IMG/VR virus record: IMGVR_UViG_3300047564_002075
DNA length: 20,000 nt
Direction: 5' to 3' (one strand)
DNA from: an uncultured virus (IMG/VR IMGVR_UViG_3300047564_002075)
Taxonomy: Duplodnaviria > Heunggongvirae > Uroviricota > Caudoviricetes
The notes under the pieces are model-generated. The model was not told the DNA's origin. It did no database searches and saw only the letters and a program-made list of their open reading frames with translations. Below, in pieces: positions 8,355-19,961 of the stretch (positions are counted from its first letter, which is position 1; the number at the start of each line of letters is the position of its first letter). Made by a program: the position numbers and the translations under genes.

Positions 8355-9233
8355 TTAAAAATCCTCTATTTCATTCAGGAGTGATGTAAGTTTGTTGTTC
8401 AGAAAGTAATTCAATGTTACTTTCTTTTTTACAGAACTATTTAACAGTTCAAATTCTTCAACAATTTGATCTTCAATTTTTGAAGGAACGCAACTAAGAT
8501 CAATCAGACTTTTATTGCGTAGGTAGTTCTTGAGTTGATCTTGATTACAAAAAGTTTCTGGTTCGGAATTAATCCACTTGACTAGATTCTTTTTGCTGAT
8601 GGGTTTCTGTCTTTTACCAGAGACAAATGTATCATCGTCAGAGAGAAAGTTTGGAATACCATCACTCCGATCTCCCTTGATGATATGTTCCACCAAGTAT
8701 TGCTTTGGATCTTCAAACTTCACAAACTTTTTAAGAATAGGATTGTACTGTTTTACACAAGGATACTTACTCAGCTGAATAAAGTCTTTGTCACCAGACA
8801 AAATTAGAACTTTCTCAACTTGTTCTCCTATCTTCTGAAGTTTTGTGTTTTTGATTGCAGTGTGTTTGGACAGTACACTAATGATGTCATCAGCTTCTGC
8901 ACCATAAATTTCCATTACAATATATGGAAAGTGTTCCCTCAGTTCATCTCTAATTTTATTCAGGACTTCAAAGATCTTACTCCAATCATGAGTAGATTTT
9001 TCACGATCCTTCTTTCGGTTTTGTTTGTAGTGAGGGAACTTCTCCTTTCTCCAATAAAATTTGGAGTCATAACAAAGAACTAGTTGACCGTATTCTTCGG
9101 AGAAACTTTTCTTGTAGTGTTTGATAGAGTTAAGAACCATATGTCTAACTAGATTCTCATCAAGTCCATCACTCACTTTGATTTGCATCATCAAATTACT
9201 GATCATGCACTGATTCATATCAACGAGTATCAT
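8355..9233 (-). CDS. rnh: T4-type RNase H (FEN-like 5'-3' exonuclease)
   Basis: MILVD.NQ, YWR...FP.YK..RK, EADDII, ILSGDKDF.QL and GD.SDGIPN motifs. Confidence 0.95.
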   Translation of the reverse strand: MILVDMNQCMISNLMMQIKVSDGLDENLVRHMVLNSIKHYKKSFSEEYGQLVLCYDSKFYWRKEKFPHYKQNRKKDREKSTHDWSKIFEVLNKIRDELREHFPYIVMEIYGAEADDIISVLSKHTAIKNTKLQKIGEQVEKVLILSGDKDFIQLSKYPCVKQYNPILKKFVKFEDPKQYLVEHIIKGDRSDGIPNFLSDDDTFVSGKRQKPISKKNLVKWINSEPETFCNQDQLKNYLRNKSLIDLSCVPSKIEDQIVEEFELLNSSVKKKVTLNYFLNNKLTSLLNEIEDF

Positions 9234-9238
9234 AAAAA

Positions 9239-9472
9239 TTAATCCTCTTCGTATTCGTCCTCTTCCTCAATGAACCTTAGAGATAACAATTCTTCATTAA
9301 TCACATGACCTTCATCATCAAACATTTCTGGGTGATATGTTAGTTTTGCAGAAAAGTAGTTATTGAAATACTCATTAGCAAACCACCCAATCACCAGACC
9401 CATCACCAGACTTCCGAGACAGAATAAAAAACTAAAGAACAAAATTGAAACTACTGATGATAATTCTGTCAT
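9239..9472 (-). CDS. Small membrane protein, conserved cyanophage hypothetical
   Basis: N-terminal hydrophobic helix ending G.VIGW, HPEMFD..G motif, acidic tail, GGAG RBS. Confidence 0.75.
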   Translation of the reverse strand: MTELSSVVSILFFSFLFCLGSLVMGLVIGWFANEYFNNYFSAKLTYHPEMFDDEGHVINEELLSLRFIEEEDEYEED

Positions 9473-9491
9473 TGGTTTTTCTCCGAGTGTA

Positions 9492-11327: not shown

Positions 11328-11345
11328 TATTTATTTTTATAAATA
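11328..11345. promoter_or_regulatory. Back-to-back late promoters
   Basis: AATAAATA on - (11328-11335) and perfect TATAAATA on + (11338-11345). The + site points into the inserted operon. Confidence 0.75.
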
Positions 11346-11350
11346 AACGT

Positions 11351-11582
11351 GGAGGAGAAATCCTTCAGTTAGAGATCAAGATGTATTACTAAAAGATTCC
11401 AGTAATGGCTCTTTCATTAATGCTTCAACTCTAATTGAATTACGATTCAATTTGAAATAGTAATAATCCCAGACGATTCACTCGTGTCGTCTGTGGCACC
11501 GATTCGTCTGGCATTATGTCAGGGACGGATTGGATCGTTTTCTCCTCTCCAAACAACATTCTTTTCCTTAAGGAGAAAACAA
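11351..11582 (+). ncRNA. Putative structured 5' leader (cis-regulatory RNA) of the + strand operon
   Basis: Pairings read directly: 11352-60/11539-47, 11364-74/11429-39, 11433-40/11445-52 (UACG loop), 11463-76/11504-17, and 11537-46/11571-80 (covers the RBS). Confidence 0.55.
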
Positions 11583-12377
11583 ATGGCAGATCAAGTTTAT
11601 GTTCCAGATCCATGGTCAATGCTCGCAGGACAGCATTCAGACATTCGTAGAGAAGGTTCTGTAGAGCGTGGCGAGATTCGTTACGACGTTGCTACTCGTG
11701 CCGCTGACAACCGTTATGCTAACGCTGTTGGTCAAGGCGAAATCAAGTATGCTATCGCTGAACATTCCGAATCAACCAACCGTGACATTCTAACCACTGG
11801 TTTTAATACTTCAGTCAAGGTAGATGAAGCTGCTGATAAGATTCAGCAAAGAGCTGCTGACTTCTATATTGCTTCTCAAGCAAGAGATTTTGATAACTCT
11901 CGTGACCTTGCTGCTCTCAGAGCATCTCAAGACCTTGCAGCTCAGAAACTCAGCACAGAGATTCTTCTTGCTACCGAGAAGACTGCTACTGCTCAGGCTC
12001 TTGAGTCAGCAAGACTTGGTGCTGCTGTAGCACTCGGACAATCACAGATCAGCAAGGAAATTGCTGAGAGCAAGTATGACCTCAGCAAGCAGGTTGCTTA
12101 TGAGAATGAGAAGACTCGTGATCTCATCAATTCACTCAAGAATGATGAACTCAATAGACTTCTCATTGAGCGCAACACTGATATCAATAGCCTCCGTGGA
12201 GATTATTGGGGTGTTAGAGATGGTCTGTTCAACAGCCAATTCGCTGCACTATCTTCACAAGTTAACTCTCAGTTAAACTCACTTAACAGTCAGATTGCTG
12301 AGACCCGTCAGGGCATGGTTAACTTCGGAACCATGGCTGGTGTAGGTCAGTCTTCAACCAGCAACGCTGTACGCTGA
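11583..12377 (+). CDS. 264-aa Ala/Ser/Gln-rich coiled-coil protein with 11-residue repeats and an N/Q/S-rich C-terminal motif; function unknown
   Basis: AAGGAG RBS before ATG 11583 (the ORF-track GTG start lies in the leader). Hendecad periodicity visible. No Cys and no evident signal peptide. Confidence 0.85.
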   Translation: MADQVYVPDPWSMLAGQHSDIRREGSVERGEIRYDVATRAADNRYANAVGQGEIKYAIAEHSESTNRDILTTGFNTSVKVDEAADKIQQRAADFYIASQARDFDNSRDLAALRASQDLAAQKLSTEILLATEKTATAQALESARLGAAVALGQSQISKEIAESKYDLSKQVAYENEKTRDLINSLKNDELNRLLIERNTDINSLRGDYWGVRDGLFNSQFAALSSQVNSQLNSLNSQIAETRQGMVNFGTMAGVGQSSTSNAVR

Positions 12378-12395: not shown

Positions 12396-12419
12396 AAGGG
12401 GGAGATGACTCCCCCTTTT
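12396..12419 (+). terminator. Internal hairpin with short U-tract (probably a leaky terminator or stabiliser)
   Basis: AAGGGGGAG-ATGA-CTCCCCCTT with only four Ts in total. The GAGGAG RBS of the next gene follows. Confidence 0.7.
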
Positions 12420-12433
12420 AGAGGAGAATAACT

Positions 12434-13006
12434 ATGGACTCAGCAGAAAGAAGACTCATTGATTTATATAATCTTCTCGCACAGTATCAGAGAAGTAATG
12501 ACCCGAATCTAATGGAAAACATTCAGTCTGTTCGTGCCGAAATTACACAGATGCTGAATGCCCGTGCTGGTGGAAACGATAACATCAACATCGTCATAGA
12601 CGGTGGCGAGTGCCCAGATGAGTGTCCCCCAGGACCGCCTGGACCTCCAGGAGAACAAGGGCCACCAGGGCCGCAGGGCCCACCAGGAGAACCAGGAGAA
12701 TGCACCTGCAGGTGCAAAAGCATCCTGGTTTCTGAAGATTATACTGCTACTTGCGATGATTACTACATCGGTGTCAATAGTGACGGACCTGTTACTATTA
12801 CATTACCTGAAGACTGCACCGACTGTTGTGAGATTATCGTGAAAGCAGAAATGGGTCCACCATTGGGCAACAGAAAAATTACAGTCACTACATCAAACGC
12901 TGCTTTGATTGATGGTGAAGGTGATTACATTATCACCACACCATATGGAGCAGTCAACTTGATTTGTCGTGGACTTGATTGGTATATTATCTCAACAAAA
13001 CTATGA
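12434..13006 (+). CDS. Cys-flanked short collagen-like protein with a phage-fibre-type C-terminal beta domain
   Basis: Eight Gly-X-Y triplets between CPDEC and CTCRC, 10 Cys in total. C-terminal DYYIGV...TITLP...IDG...YG...W.II pattern. GAGGAG RBS. Confidence 0.85.
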   Translation: MDSAERRLIDLYNLLAQYQRSNDPNLMENIQSVRAEITQMLNARAGGNDNINIVIDGGECPDECPPGPPGPPGEQGPPGPQGPPGEPGECTCRCKSILVSEDYTATCDDYYIGVNSDGPVTITLPEDCTDCCEIIVKAEMGPPLGNRKITVTTSNAALIDGEGDYIITTPYGAVNLICRGLDWYIISTKL

Positions 13007-13785
13007 ACTTTAATATTAAACCATCTCTACCTGACATAAGAGATCACATTTATAGAAGTGACAGCACAGAAGTTCTCAGGGAATCTGTAGATCTTCGTGA
13101 GTGGGATACAATAGTTGAATCACAATATGATCTGGGCAGTTGTGCTGCAAATGCGCTCACAAATGCATACGAACTGTGCGTGAAACGCAACTACCCAGAA
13201 CATTTTACTCATCTCAGTAGACTGTTTATCTATTATAACACCCGGCTTGAACATGGTGATATTGAAAAAGATACTGGAATGTTTTTAAGAGATGGTCTTA
13301 AATCATTATCAAAGTATGGAGTGTGTTCTGAATTATTATGGCCATATGATCAAGAAAAATTTAATGATACACCATCTGATGAATGCTATGAGGATGCTAA
13401 GAAAAGAAAAATCATTAAGTATGAAAAATTAATTAGCACTTATTATATCACTCAAGTTTTGAATAACAACAAACCAGTTGTATTTGGTATGGAAATTTAC
13501 GAAAGTTTTATGGAACTAAATGATCGTATTTCTACTGTAAGTTTCCCTTCCAGAAAAGAGAAAAGTCTTGGAGGACATGGGATGTGTATGGTCGGATATA
13601 ATTTAAAGGAAAGACTGTTTTTAGCAAAGAATAGTTTTGGTCCTACTTGGGGAAACAACGGTTACTGTTGGATTCCTTTTGATTACATTAATCAGGAAGG
13701 ATACGACATTTGGACTTTTGATATACCCAACCAATTAGGAGAATCAAATGTATTATACGAGGCACTACTACCCATATTATCATAG
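13003..13785 (+). CDS. Papain-family (C1A) cysteine peptidase
   Basis: Q-x3-GSC (QYDLGSC), SRLFIYY, GGH...VGY and KNSFG..WG..GY: oxyanion Gln and Cys/His/Asn triad intact. Start at 13003 overlaps the upstream stop (ATGA). Confidence 0.93.
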   Translation: MNFNIKPSLPDIRDHIYRSDSTEVLRESVDLREWDTIVESQYDLGSCAANALTNAYELCVKRNYPEHFTHLSRLFIYYNTRLEHGDIEKDTGMFLRDGLKSLSKYGVCSELLWPYDQEKFNDTPSDECYEDAKKRKIIKYEKLISTYYITQVLNNNKPVVFGMEIYESFMELNDRISTVSFPSRKEKSLGGHGMCMVGYNLKERLFLAKNSFGPTWGNNGYCWIPFDYINQEGYDIWTFDIPNQLGESNVLYEALLPILS

Positions 13786-13885
13786 GAGATATTATGACTA
13801 CTATGACTATTACCGCTATGGGTGTCATCCTTATTATGATAGATATTGCCCTTATTACTCATATTATCCTTTCTATCCTTACTAA
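13748..13885 (+). CDS. 45-aa tyrosine-rich peptide (22 Tyr) absent from the ORF track
   Basis: MYYTRHYYPYYHRRYYDYYDYYRYGCHPYYDRYCPYYSYYPFYPY. AGGAG RBS at 13737-13741. Mixed TAT/TAC codons argue against a simple DNA repeat. Confidence 0.85.
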   Translation: MYYTRHYYPYYHRRYYDYYDYYRYGCHPYYDRYCPYYSYYPFYPY

Positions 13886-13899
13886 GTAGGAGATTCAAA

Positions 13900-14151
13900 A
13901 TGTATTACCGTTATCAGCCATATCCATACTACAGGAGATACTACAGTTTAGATCCTTATTATTATAGAAGGTACTACAATCCATACTACAATTATCAACA
14001 GAATATAGTTGATAGTCAAGTATCAGACATAGACCAAAGTATTAATAACTTTGGGGATATGACTGATGTGATTCAAGATGCTGATGTTTTTCAAGTAATG
14101 TCACCAGAACCAGAAGAACCTCAAGAACAATCTCGCCTGATTCTACCATAA
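13900..14151 (+). CDS. 83-aa protein: Tyr/Arg/Pro-rich N-terminus, Q/N/D-rich NFGxM motif, acidic tail
   Basis: AGGAG RBS at 13888-13892 supports the start at MYYRYQPYPYYRRYY rather than 13846. Confidence 0.85.
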   Translation: MYYRYQPYPYYRRYYSLDPYYYRRYYNPYYNYQQNIVDSQVSDIDQSINNFGDMTDVIQDADVFQVMSPEPEEPQEQSRLILP

Positions 14152-14186
14152 TAAAAAAGAGTGGCACTAGACCACTCTTTCTTTTT
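14152..14186. terminator. Bidirectional intrinsic terminator closing the + operon
   Basis: AAAGAGTGG (14156-64) / CCACTCTTT (14172-80) with A-run left and T-run right, between convergent genes. Confidence 0.85.
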
Positions 14187-14188
14187 AT

Positions 14189-14470
14189 TCAGTTTTCTTC
14201 TAGTTCTTCTACACAGTCTTGGAAATAAGTTTTCTCAAGTTCTTTTGATTGTTTTGTATCAACAAGAACCCATTCTTTTTTAATATCAAGATAGGATTCC
14301 CAAATAGGAACTCCTTCCGATTCCATTCTTCTATAGAGAATACCTTTATACGGTGTAAAGTATTGTCCAGAGAAGTTACGAGCAACTTGCAGTTTAGGAT
14401 TTTTTAGTTGCTCTAAAGTTTGTTGAAGATTTGCAATTTGTTCTTCAATTTGTTCAATAGTTAATGACAT
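14189..14470 (-). CDS. Hypothetical protein with short N-terminal coiled coil
   Basis: 93-aa ORF starting MSLTIEQIEEQIANLQQTLEQLK, tightly packed with its neighbours. Confidence 0.7.
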   Translation of the reverse strand: MSLTIEQIEEQIANLQQTLEQLKNPKLQVARNFSGQYFTPYKGILYRRMESEGVPIWESYLDIKKEWVLVDTKQSKELEKTYFQDCVEELEEN

Positions 14471-14475
14471 AATTT

Positions 14476-14658
14476 TTAAAAATTAATAGATGTACATGGA
14501 AATTTTTGTTTGATCATCATCTCATTGTGATGTTTCATTTCTGTTTGAAGTCTTGCGATGTTTACTACATTTACAGAAACAAAAGAAGTAATTGTTCCAA
14601 ACCATATCCACAATAATATTTGAAGTGTTCTGTGGATTTCTTTTTGTTTTTTGTCCAT
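14476..14658 (-). CDS. Small single-pass membrane protein
   Basis: Basic N-terminus followed by hydrophobic ILLWIWFGTITSFVSVNVVNI. Confidence 0.6.
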   Translation of the reverse strand: MDKKQKEIHRTLQILLWIWFGTITSFVSVNVVNIARLQTEMKHHNEMMIKQKFPCTSINF

Positions 14659-14659
14659 A

Positions 14660-15082
14660 TCAATTTACCATGGCATCAAAAAGATTCGGGGAGTCATTAG
14701 TTTCTTCATCTATAAAAAGTTCTACCAAATCAAGGAAATAATACTCCACTTCTTGCAGTCCACCAGAACATCCCATATCCCATGCTTTATTAAAAATTTT
14801 ATCTGCTTTTGGATGTCCTGTTATTTTATACTTGTCAATGAGATCTCTACGAAATTCATCTTGAAGTCTTTTGTTTTCTTCATGATAATGTTTTAAATGA
14901 GCATTATAGGAAACTTCATCTAAAACATATTCCTCTACACAGTTTTCAGGTGCTTGGAATTCATCATCAAATTGTCGTTTCATCCCTACCATTACTCCCT
15001 TTCGGTAATAGTAGATTGTCATGTAATCGTCTTTCTTTGGAATTGAAACAGAAGTCTTTTGATAATATGAAAGTGGTTTCAT
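14660..15082 (-). CDS. Hypothetical phage protein
   Basis: 140-aa ORF with F..DL......HPKADK.F..AW..G.S.G..EV...F..LVEL segment. First gene after an early-type promoter. Confidence 0.75.
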   Translation of the reverse strand: MKPLSYYQKTSVSIPKKDDYMTIYYYRKGVMVGMKRQFDDEFQAPENCVEEYVLDEVSYNAHLKHYHEENKRLQDEFRRDLIDKYKITGHPKADKIFNKAWDMGCSGGLQEVEYYFLDLVELFIDEETNDSPNLFDAMVN

Positions 15083-15148
15083 ATTTTTTTAATGTAAAGG
15101 GACACTAAGACTGAAGGGAATAATCACCACCCCCCTGTCTCGCGGCAG

Positions 15149-15177
15149 AGTATACCACTATATTTGCTATATCACAA
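15149..15177 (-). promoter_or_regulatory. Sigma70-type promoter for the 15082 gene cluster
   Basis: TTGTGA-N17-TATACT on the - strand. Confidence 0.55.
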
Positions 15178-15201
15178 GTACCCGATACTGGGTATATTCA
15201 T

Positions 15202-18937: not shown

Positions 18938-19819
18938 TCAGAACTTGAAACCAAGACCAGTGGTGAACACAGGCGAATAGGTTCCGTTAGAAGCACCATA
19001 GCTGTTAGCAGCATTGGTGGTAGGGAACTTCAGATCAGCGAAACCAACGAGAGAGTTGGTGATGCGACCTTCCACACCAAGAGCAAGAACAACTTGACCA
19101 CGATTTCCTACAGCAGACTGGTAGTTTGCTTGAGTATCATTGGTGAAAGGAACTTGATAACCAACACCAGTATAGATGTTAGCACGACTTACACCAGAAG
19201 CAGCACGGGAGATACTCCAATCATAAGAAACAAGAGCACCACCAGCAGTACCGATATTGCTGTTAGGACCAGCAACTGCATTCAGGTAAGGACGGAGAGA
19301 AACAGCATTCTGATTGCTGAAGTTCTTTACAGCATAACGTGCTTGAAGAGTAGCACCAGAGATGGTGCGGTCAGAGGTATAACCACCACCATTAACACCT
19401 TGCTTGTTTAGAAGAACACCAAGACCGAGATAGTTACCAACGCCTTGTGCTTTCTGAGCGGCAGCAACTTCAAGAGCAGTTACACGGGTGTTTGTAGCAG
19501 AAAGTTCCTTAGCAAATTCTGCACGAAGAGCAGCAGCGAGTTGTGCATCTGCAGCAGTTTGGAACTCAGCAATACGATCAAGACAAGCGTTAGTCAGAGC
19601 AGCCAGTTCGGCACGAGTGGCAGGTTGACCAGGCTGGAAAGTACCGTTTGGATAACCAGCAACACAACCATAACGAGAAATTAGGTTGGAGATTGCCTGA
19701 TAGGACCACTCAGTAGGTTGAACATCACGCAGTTGCGAAACACTGGTGACTTGTGCCATAGCGGGGGCAGCAATAGAAGCTGCAGCAACACCAGCGGCAA
19801 TAAACGAACGAATCATCAT
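18938..19819 (-). CDS. SLH-domain outer-membrane protein (cyanobacterial porin-type N-terminus plus short beta-barrel)
   Basis: Signal peptide ending APAMA, then QVTSVSQL.DVQPT.W.YQA..NL..RYGCVAGYP.GTF...TR.E.AA..NACLD, a coiled coil, amphipathic beta strands and terminal GLGFKF. Confidence 0.85.
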   Translation of the reverse strand: MMIRSFIAAGVAAASIAAPAMAQVTSVSQLRDVQPTEWSYQAISNLISRYGCVAGYPNGTFQPGQPATRAELAALTNACLDRIAEFQTAADAQLAAALRAEFAKELSATNTRVTALEVAAAQKAQGVGNYLGLGVLLNKQGVNGGGYTSDRTISGATLQARYAVKNFSNQNAVSLRPYLNAVAGPNSNIGTAGGALVSYDWSISRAASGVSRANIYTGVGYQVPFTNDTQANYQSAVGNRGQVVLALGVEGRITNSLVGFADLKFPTTNAANSYGASNGTYSPVFTTGLGFKF

Positions 19820-19845: not shown

Positions 19846-19853
19846 TATTTATA
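19846..19853 (-). promoter_or_regulatory. Late promoter (TATAAATA) upstream of the SLH protein gene
   Basis: Exact match 26 nt upstream of the start codon. Confidence 0.7.
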
Positions 19854-19878: not shown

Positions 19879-19961
19879 TGTCGGTAAGAGGACTTGAACC
19901 TCCACGTCATAAAGACACTGGAACCTAAACCCAGCGCGTCTACCAATTCCGCCATACCGAC
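19879..19961 (-). tRNA. trnL: tRNA-Leu (anticodon UAG), CCA not encoded
   Basis: GTCGGTA/TACCGAC acceptor stem, D-arm TGGCGGAATTGGTAGACGC, anticodon arm CTGGG-TTTAGGT-TCCAG, long variable arm, T-arm GGTTCAAGTCC. Confidence 0.97.

Follow-up and report, generated by a model that had tools for sequence, protein, structure and literature searches.

A conserved gene for a tyrosine-rich 45-residue peptide in a fibre operon of uncultured cyanomyoviruses

The uncultured virus record IMGVR_UViG_3300047564_002075 (IMG/VR; Caudoviricetes) provides a 20,000 nt stretch of DNA, the window of this report, in which a short open reading frame (ORF), designated Y1, encodes a 45 amino acid (aa) peptide with 22 tyrosines and two cysteines. 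The pattern of sequence conservation in related viruses argues that Y1 is a genuine gene, translated separately and kept by strong purifying selection. Its operon of five genes, in which it comes fourth, also encodes a rod protein predicted to be of coiled-coil type, a cysteine-rich collagen-like protein, a papain-family (C1) cysteine peptidase and a second tyrosine-rich protein, designated Y2, and it is plausible that the Y1 peptide has a role as a glue or cross-linker.

Conservation of the Y1 gene

The Y1 ORF extends from an ATG at position 13748 to a TAA stop codon at 13883-13885, and its translation is MYYTRHYYPYYHRRYYDYYDYYRYGCHPYYDRYCPYYSYYPFYPY. In addition to tyrosine, which accounts for 49% of the residues, the peptide contains 5 Pro, 5 Arg, 3 Asp, 3 His, 2 Cys and 1 Gly, and has a mass of 6.4 kDa, an isoelectric point (pI) of 8.45 and a net charge of +1.7; Lys is absent, as are the aliphatic residues Leu, Ile, Val and Ala. 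The peptidase ORF ends at 13785, within Y1. The original prediction, made from this DNA alone, was of a 45 aa ORF at this position with 22 tyrosines, two cysteines, an AGGAG ribosome-binding site (RBS) and a 38 nt overlap with the protease gene, and all of these features are borne out by the sequence and its translation. The composition was evaluated relative to the 83 ATG-to-stop ORFs of at least 40 aa in the window and to 200 first-order Markov simulations of the window. Among the 83 ORFs, the closest to Y1 in tyrosine content are a neighbouring gene (19%) and then an ORF with 10%, and in the simulated windows the ORF richest in tyrosine had on average 10% and at most 17% of this residue. 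As no simulated ORF exceeded 17% tyrosine, a chance origin of the Y1 composition is excluded.

Close relatives were collected from IMG/VR, 16 loci by a search with the peptidase and 5 more by a search with Y2, and together these provide 11 distinct Y1 sequences. In all 14 of the loci with 75-100% peptidase identity, a tyrosine-rich ORF of 44-53 aa occupies the same place, and the two distant peptidase loci (50% and 28% identity) are without a Y1-like ORF at that place. All five loci added by the Y2 search have Y1, with four of the sequences being new. The frame and the ATG are kept in 11 of 11 distinct close loci, an AGGAGA is located 6 nt 5′ of the ATG in all seven distinct loci that were checked, and the gaps in the codon alignment are all of whole codons. 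In 21 pairwise comparisons, the proportion of nonsynonymous differences (pN) ranges from 0.05 to 0.21 and that of synonymous differences (pS) from 0.45 to 1.2, with synonymous sites at or near saturation, and the ratio of the corresponding rates (dN/dS) is 0.02-0.16 for the 10 pairs in which it was computable. The minimum numbers of changes at the first, second and third codon positions are 25, 20 and 52, and both TAT and TAC are present in 9 of the 12 alignment columns that are tyrosine throughout. Frames +2 and -3 are likewise open over the Y1 region, as follows from the TAY-rich Y1 frame, and it is the tyrosine frame that the codon-position pattern picks out. Preservation of the frame and synonymous TAT/TAC variation in relatives had been set beforehand as checks on the original prediction, and both were found. 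With frame, start codon and RBS kept, insertions and deletions of whole codons, pN far below pS and TAT alternating with TAC, the sequence evidence shows Y1 to be a gene in its own right.

Despite this conservation, Y1 is barely represented in protein databases. Searches of a collection of 5.8 billion protein clusters, for proteins of near length and for longer proteins, returned no match, and a profile of the 11 Y1 sequences identified one 45 aa orthologue among 1.84 billion protein representatives. Y1 has no family in Pfam or PHROG, neither Y1 nor Y2 has a usable match in the ESM Atlas, and sequence searches of the PDB returned spurious matches to designed armadillo repeats and an insignificant match to a lactococcal phage baseplate protein (E 0.13). 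A degenerate DNA pattern for the Y1 N-terminus is present in 13 loci, 12 of which are operon cassettes already known from the other searches; L047 was rejected as a Y1 locus, as the pattern match there is a chance one and there is no such ORF.

The operon and the motif common to Y2 and the rod protein

The architecture of the operon can be read directly from the window (Table 1). The order is TATAAATA, a structured leader RNA, the genes for the rod protein, the collagen-like protein, the C1 peptidase, Y1 and Y2, and a terminator. The genes are packed tightly or overlap, and all five are on the + strand within a run of - strand genes.

Table 1. Features of the Y1 operon, with positions in the window
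Feature	Position	Strand	Basis or remark
T4-type late-promoter-like TATAAATA	11338..11345	+	Upstream of operon
Conserved structured 5′ leader RNA	11352..11560 (3′ domain 11427-11550)	+	Conservation, covariation
Rod protein, 264 aa (MADQVY...), tail TRQGMVNFGTMAGVGQSSTSNxVR	11583..12377	+	AlphaFold2; 53 related loci
Cys-rich collagen-like protein, 190 aa	12434..13006	+	Pfam Collagen, E 1.9e-4 (below curated cut-off); PHROG
Papain-family (C1) cysteine peptidase, 260 aa	13003..13785	+	PF00112, E 1.9e-13
AGGAG RBS of Y1	13737..13741	+	6 nt before ATG; AGGAGA in relatives
Y1, 45 aa peptide with 22 Tyr and 2 Cys	13748..13885	+	Frame kept, in-frame indels, strong purifying selection
AGGAGA RBS of Y2	13888..13893	+	Kept in relatives
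Y2, 83 aa Tyr-rich protein	13900..14151	+	213 homologues in metagenome and virus data; invariant core residues
Terminator-like hairpin and T run	14156..14180	+	5 nt past Y2 stop

There are four matches to TATAAATA in the window, with 0.98 expected, and all four are upstream of correctly oriented genes, one of which is the gp48 baseplate gene. At the operon promoter, TAAATA is invariant in 10 of 10 aligned relatives. The match to the late promoter consensus suggests that the operon is of late type, with the timing judged from this pattern. The leader of ~210 nt between TATAAATA and the first gene is conserved to a degree that exceeds the synonymous sites of the genes, and it is predicted to fold into three helical elements with 61 pairs, 15 of which have compensatory changes. 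A covariance model of its 3′ domain has matches 5′ of the rod gene both in the window and at 5 other loci (90-127 bits), and none in the distant cassettes. The leader has a weak match in Rfam to RF02980, freshwater-2 (24.6 bits; the gathering score is 49.9), an RNA on which a literature search found no publication, and at the gathering score there is no Rfam family for the leader in the window nor anywhere in 14 related loci. It may be an undescribed cis-regulatory RNA. A mini-ORF within it, ATG TAT TAC TAA (11381-11392, +), has a start context similar to that of Y1 and of Y2, but is unlikely to encode a leader peptide, as its ATG is replaced by ACG in 2 of 10 relatives and its bases form part of a conserved stem.

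Y2 has a Tyr/Arg-rich head (16 tyrosines in the first 34 residues; pI 9.4), followed by a conserved SQIxxVxQSIxNFGxMxDVxQ core and then an acidic Pro/Glu tail. In GTDB genomes, none of 32 pattern matches encodes a Y2 relative. With a 121-row alignment, AlphaFold2 predicts no secondary structure for Y2, with a predicted local distance difference test (pLDDT) score of 54, and by this model Y2 is a conserved disordered protein. The rod protein has no Pfam or PHROG family. It is modelled (mean pLDDT 76) with two helices, residues 19-186 and 189-251, followed by a disordered tail, and so is predicted to be essentially one helix of ~240 residues, a coiled-coil-type rod. Its last ~28 residues (SQLxETRQGMVNFGTMAGVGQSSTSNNVR) are nearly invariant, even in relatives in which the remainder of the protein is 31-45% identical.

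A motif of ~28 residues, SQ..x..Q.[IM].NFG.M..V.Q, is common to the C-terminus of the rod protein (12290-12374) and the core of Y2 (14008-14091). A hidden Markov model (HMM) built solely from 14 Y2-type core segments was used to search 8553 six-frame segments from 54 sources, the window and 53 related loci. It identified 40 rod tails, 38 of them with E values from 1e-8 to 7.5e-5, and five unrelated segments had E values of 1.6 or above. Alignment statistics from hhalign for the rod tail and the Y2 core (E 4e-38) were discarded, as the reversed-sequence control gave E 2e-29. Two proteins of the operon thus have a short module in common, which is plausibly a docking or oligomerisation element. 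Y1 does not have the motif; both the regular expression and the HMM match Y2-type ORFs and rod tails, and never Y1. Y1 and the Y2 head open alike, with MYY..PYPYY.RRYY, and are also alike in composition, operon and adjacency, whereas Y1 is without the core and acidic tail and has two cysteines.

The collagen-like protein has PHROG matches to a tail collar family (E 1e-7) and to tail-fibre families, which together include PHROG 3449, 5073, 18350 and others, and its 10 cysteines in 190 aa, counted by eye, are clustered at both ends of a GPP-type run. In many relatives, a gene for a 203 aa beta-fibre protein (MAYLAQPTSK..YGVV), with no PHROG or Pfam family, is located between the collagen-like gene and the peptidase gene. 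The start of the peptidase at 13003 was set from its relatives (MNFNIKPS) and results in a 4 nt overlap with the end of the collagen-like gene. In all 16 sequences compared, the catalytic residues Q41, C47, H192 and N210 are unchanged; neither a propeptide nor a signal peptide was seen, the protein beginning at the mature domain, and among GenBank phage records the peptidase has 3 distant matches (28-36% identity).

Pfam and PHROG scans identify the window as a fragment of a T4-like cyanomyovirus. It has T4-type genes (gp4-type head closure, the gp48 and gp53 baseplate proteins, gp32, the gp59 loader, gp33 and RNase H) together with genes typical of cyanophages (PhoH, ThyX, SpeD, psbD, psbA and peroxiredoxin), of which psbA and psbD suggest that the host is a cyanobacterium. 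A blastn search of GenBank phage records with positions 12400-15200 gave no match. Elsewhere in the window, a 293 aa protein (18938-19819, -) without a PHROG family contains an S-layer homology (SLH) domain (Pfam E 3.9e-11), which binds cell walls and is unusual in a cyanomyovirus, and TATAAATA is also present upstream of this gene (19846-19853, -). A transfer RNA (tRNA) gene, tRNA-Leu with a TAG anticodon, is located at 19879-19961 (-; 53.5 bits).

Distribution of tyrosine-rich ORFs in related cassettes

A search with the rod protein identified 53 IMG/VR loci, down to 31% identity and, after deduplication, 36 cassettes with at least 3.2 kb past the rod gene. The phages that have these similar cassettes are uncultured and large. 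Small + strand ORFs of up to 130 aa with at least 22% tyrosine and without the core motif were designated class A (tail-less), and tyrosine-rich ORFs with the Y2 core motif were designated class B. Tyrosine-rich small ORFs were counted in 28 of the 36 cassettes, 14 with both classes, 6 with class A only and 8 with class B only, leaving 8 with neither. Two cysteines are typical of the tail-less ORFs, though their positions shift; 20 of 21 such ORFs have two or more, and in 15 the number is exactly two. The peptidase gene is present in 22 of the 36 cassettes. In the close clade, the order peptidase-Y1-Y2 is strict (linkage in 14 of 14), and elsewhere it is not. There is no peptidase within 5 kb in 9 of the 28 cassettes with tyrosine-rich ORFs, and 6 of the 20 class A ORFs are without an adjoining peptidase gene, having as neighbours collagen-like genes or genes of the 203 aa beta-fibre type. 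Because these nine cassettes have tyrosine-rich ORFs in the absence of the peptidase, the tyrosine-rich genes beyond the close clade go with the fibre genes and not with the protease.

Of the eight cassettes with neither class, L082 has a motif-bearing ORF with <10% tyrosine. In L086 (6652-6984, +), L088 (6882-7268, +) and L100 (6916-7290, +), the tyrosine-rich gene is replaced by genes for repeat proteins of 110-128 aa that are rich in Trp, Tyr and Asp (for example YWYWDYPDYDYYDYDD and DDWYYDDWYYHDWYWDYDDWYY).

Further features were seen in the related loci. Located 3′ of Y2 in L003 (5118-5363, +) and L005 (4639-4875, +) are small genes whose products have a head rich in aromatic and basic residues and, after it, long Pro-Glu-Pro-Val repeats (PEPVPVPEPVPV...). 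A 140 aa protein with a hydrophobic C-terminal segment is encoded after Y2 in L005 (4113-4535, +), L011, L013, L029 and L073, and is not present in the window; it matches PHROG 451 (E 8e-31) and, weakly, a holin family (E 8.5e-4). Large tRNA arrays adjoin the cassette in L073 (1012-4517, +), L082 (957-4752, +) and L102 (8427-10372, -), with the L073 array having 21 genes, including tRNA-Tyr and tRNA-Pro, and one more tRNA gene being located downstream. L073 also has a match to the abiF RNA (46.8 bits), and L055 has a glutamine riboswitch match (38.7 bits; 716-764, -). Genes for a tRNA with a CTA anticodon, which reads TAG, are present in two distant cassette contigs, L099 (3153-3227, -) and L092 (8655-8729, -), and L099 also encodes a permuted transfer-messenger RNA (9155-9481, -; 77.5 bits). 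Recoding of TAG as a means by which a tyrosine-rich gene might be hidden in L099 was considered and rejected, as reading TAG as Gln revealed no such gene and left the cassette genes unchanged.

Possible functions of Y1 and comparison with known systems

The reading that we prefer, and regard as possible rather than probable, is that Y1 is a disordered peptide of Tyr/Arg/Pro/Cys 'sticker' character, by which a collagen-like fibre of the virion is glued or cross-linked. Disorder is predicted from the lack of aliphatic residues and from a predicted complex in which the fold of Y1 itself was uncertain. As the peptide has no core-building residues, it can act solely through weak aromatic, cation-pi and aromatic-proline contacts and its two cysteines. 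The context fits such a role, the operon being of late type and encoding also a rod of coiled-coil type, the collagen-like protein with its Cys clusters and, in relatives, a beta-fibre protein. We infer a location on the virion, binding to the collagen-like protein and the chemistry of cross-linking from this composition and context. Y1 would then be a small component of the matrix or cement in an accessory fibre of the virion, with its tyrosines stacking on the proline-rich collagen-like helices and on the tyrosine-rich head of Y2, and with its two cysteines forming disulfides with the Cys clusters of the collagen-like protein after the particle has left the reducing cytoplasm, so that an extra fibre on the virion would be bundled or hardened. 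Y2 would be the anchored partner, since its docking-type motif is the same as that of the rod C-terminal tail, and Y1 the free, tail-less version.

Several observations weigh against this interpretation. In the close clade, Y1 always overlaps the 3′ end of the peptidase gene, which also fits a protease-linked role. The distant class A ORFs are tied to Y1 by composition and position and not by established homology, and the similarity of Y1 to the Y2 head is weak, with an hhalign probability of 85% relative to 8% for the reversed control and no alignment by BLASTP. Four cassettes, L068, L070, L085 and L099, have rod and collagen-like genes without an aromatic-rich small ORF, and the peptide is therefore not essential to the rod/collagen-like core. 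The late-promoter call comes solely from a consensus match, and the rod, beta-fibre and Y2 proteins have no match by tblastn in 50,697 GenBank phage records.

That Y1 is instead a partner of the adjacent C1 peptidase is, in our judgement, unlikely. It could be a substrate matured to a tyrosine-rich product, or an inhibitor or trans-propeptide that quiets the enzyme in the cytoplasm. B. subtilis CotT is processed by the YabG protease, staphostatins are encoded downstream of staphopains, and the S2 pocket of papain-family enzymes favours aromatic residues. Consistent with such a partnership, Y1 starts within the 3′ end of the peptidase gene in 11 of 11 close loci (by 31-55 nt in the seven measured) and also in L066, L073, L077 and L079, which suggests translational coupling, and the enzyme has no propeptide and retains its catalytic Q, C, H and N residues. 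The tyrosine-rich cassettes with no peptidase within 5 kb and the tail-less ORFs that are not beside one argue against it, as do 3 of the 22 peptidase-bearing cassettes that, under the strict rule, have no tyrosine-rich small ORF. Y1 also has no Pfam match to inhibitor or propeptide families (cystatin, chagasin, I29 propeptide, staphostatin-like). A prediction of the complex of Y1 with the peptidase scored 0.00, which by the rule of the tool is evidence neither way, and it was not used.

Rather less likely is that Y1, with Y2, is an assembly chaperone or nucleator of the collagen-like or coiled-coil fibres that acts in the infected cell and is not kept in the particle. The co-occurrence with fibre genes speaks for such a factor as it does for a virion glue, conservation of Y2 as a disordered protein would fit folding on a partner, and in T4-type phages small genes beside fibre genes commonly encode assembly factors, as exemplified by gp57A and gp38. 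The two conserved cysteines and the extreme tyrosine content are, however, foreign to known fibre chaperones. A little further down in probability is a role unconnected with fibres, in which Y1, as a basic Tyr/Arg peptide, would bind nucleic acid or drive the formation of condensates; an internal protein packaged in the particle and a late effector directed at the host are examples. Tyrosine and arginine are the main cohesive residues in phase-separating low-complexity domains, both Y1 and the Y2 head are basic, and the motif common to the rod protein and Y2 could just as well be a tag for targeting to the capsid; against this, the rest of the operon encodes fibrous, Cys-rich proteins of extracellular type, there is no nucleic-acid-binding domain nearby and the conservation of cysteine is left unexplained.

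The two remaining explanations are very improbable. Tyr-Tyr and Tyr-Cys cross-links occur in known modified peptides, and a short Tyr/Cys-rich peptide adjoining a peptidase might be the precursor of an oxidatively cross-linked or otherwise modified ribosomal peptide, with the peptidase removing a leader, as had also been raised in the original prediction, but the cassette has no modifying enzyme, neither the operon nor the remainder of the window has a gene for a radical-SAM enzyme, a P450, a YcaO protein, an oxidase or a transporter, and Y1 is conserved as a whole with no leader/core division. Least probable is that Y1 is not an independent protein but a by-product of a conserved DNA or RNA element or an extension of the peptidase through a programmed frameshift, for although frames +2 and -3 are open too and Y1 occupies the +1 frame with respect to the peptidase, the overlap being conserved, changes are in excess at third positions of the Y1 frame, TAT alternates with TAC, the close loci have their own AGGAGA and ATG, the overlap is just 4 nt in L073 and L079, and ORFs of similar composition exist without an upstream peptidase. 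A role as an ultraviolet screen had also been proposed, and nothing was found in its support.

The sticker reading can be extended to a virion composite like a spore coat or hair, in which Tyr/Cys microproteins would surround the collagen-like and coiled-coil fibres and harden them covalently through disulfides and possibly dityrosine driven by light or reactive oxygen species, with NFGxM docking the rod protein and Y2 at one site and the peptidase trimming parts. We regard this extended version as rather improbable.

Comparison with known systems reveals likenesses to several. The B. subtilis spore-coat proteins CotC/CotU and CotT, like Y1, are small, very tyrosine-rich and without a globular core, and belong to a late multi-protein outer structure with a cysteine protease adjacent or required, and cross-linking through Tyr or Cys has been proposed for the tyrosine-rich proteins of the Bacillus spore coat. 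CotC is rich in Tyr, Lys and Asp, whereas Y1 has 22 Tyr, 5 Pro, 5 Arg, 3 Asp and no Lys, and the Bacillus setting is a spore with YabG whereas that of Y1 is a phage with a papain-family C1 protease. The comparison with CotC/CotT made in the original prediction thus holds as an analogy and fails as homology, as Y1 has no Pfam match and none of its 45 residues is Lys. The high glycine-tyrosine and high-sulfur keratin-associated proteins of hair are also small and Tyr/Cys-rich and form a matrix in which a fibrous protein is embedded and cross-linked; they are eukaryotic, with no sequence relation to Y1, which has one Gly in 45 residues and is encoded with a collagen-like/coiled-coil fibre and not with keratin. 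The operon resembles those for the T4-type accessory and collagen-like tail or collar fibres in its late type and in the PHROG matches of the collagen-like protein, and the rod protein is predicted to be a long helix like fibritin-type whiskers, but the fibre systems described have neither half-tyrosine microproteins nor a papain-type peptidase. Sticker domains of the FUS family type are, like Y1, predicted to be disordered and are dominated by Tyr and Arg; Y1 is far shorter, with denser tyrosine, no Gly/Ser spacers and with cysteine, and it is viral and encoded beside fibre genes. With no Pfam or PHROG family, a different composition and a different setting, Y1 belongs to none of the spore-coat, keratin-associated and T4-type accessory-fibre groups. 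Literature searches found nothing on tyrosine-rich proteins in cyanophages and, among the papers listed, nothing relevant on tyrosine-rich small proteins of phages or on cyanophage collagen-like proteins with a cysteine protease, and the Y1 family is undescribed in the literature searched.

Gene callers drop genes that are so short and compositionally biased, and Y1 is nearly invisible in protein databases, yet the strength of selection on it equals that on ordinary phage genes. Microproteins of extreme composition are thus part of a fibre operon that is conserved but uncharacterised in abundant cyanophages of freshwater type, and the motif common to Y2 and the rod protein and the structured leader RNA provide concrete experimental handles. 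If a Tyr/Cys matrix is indeed present on a virion fibre, it would be a new structural principle for phage particles and a compact natural adhesive or cross-linking peptide and, were the hardened composite to exist, it would be the first tyrosine-rich matrix system encoded by a virus and would show microproteins in a new use, as parts of the virion's architecture.

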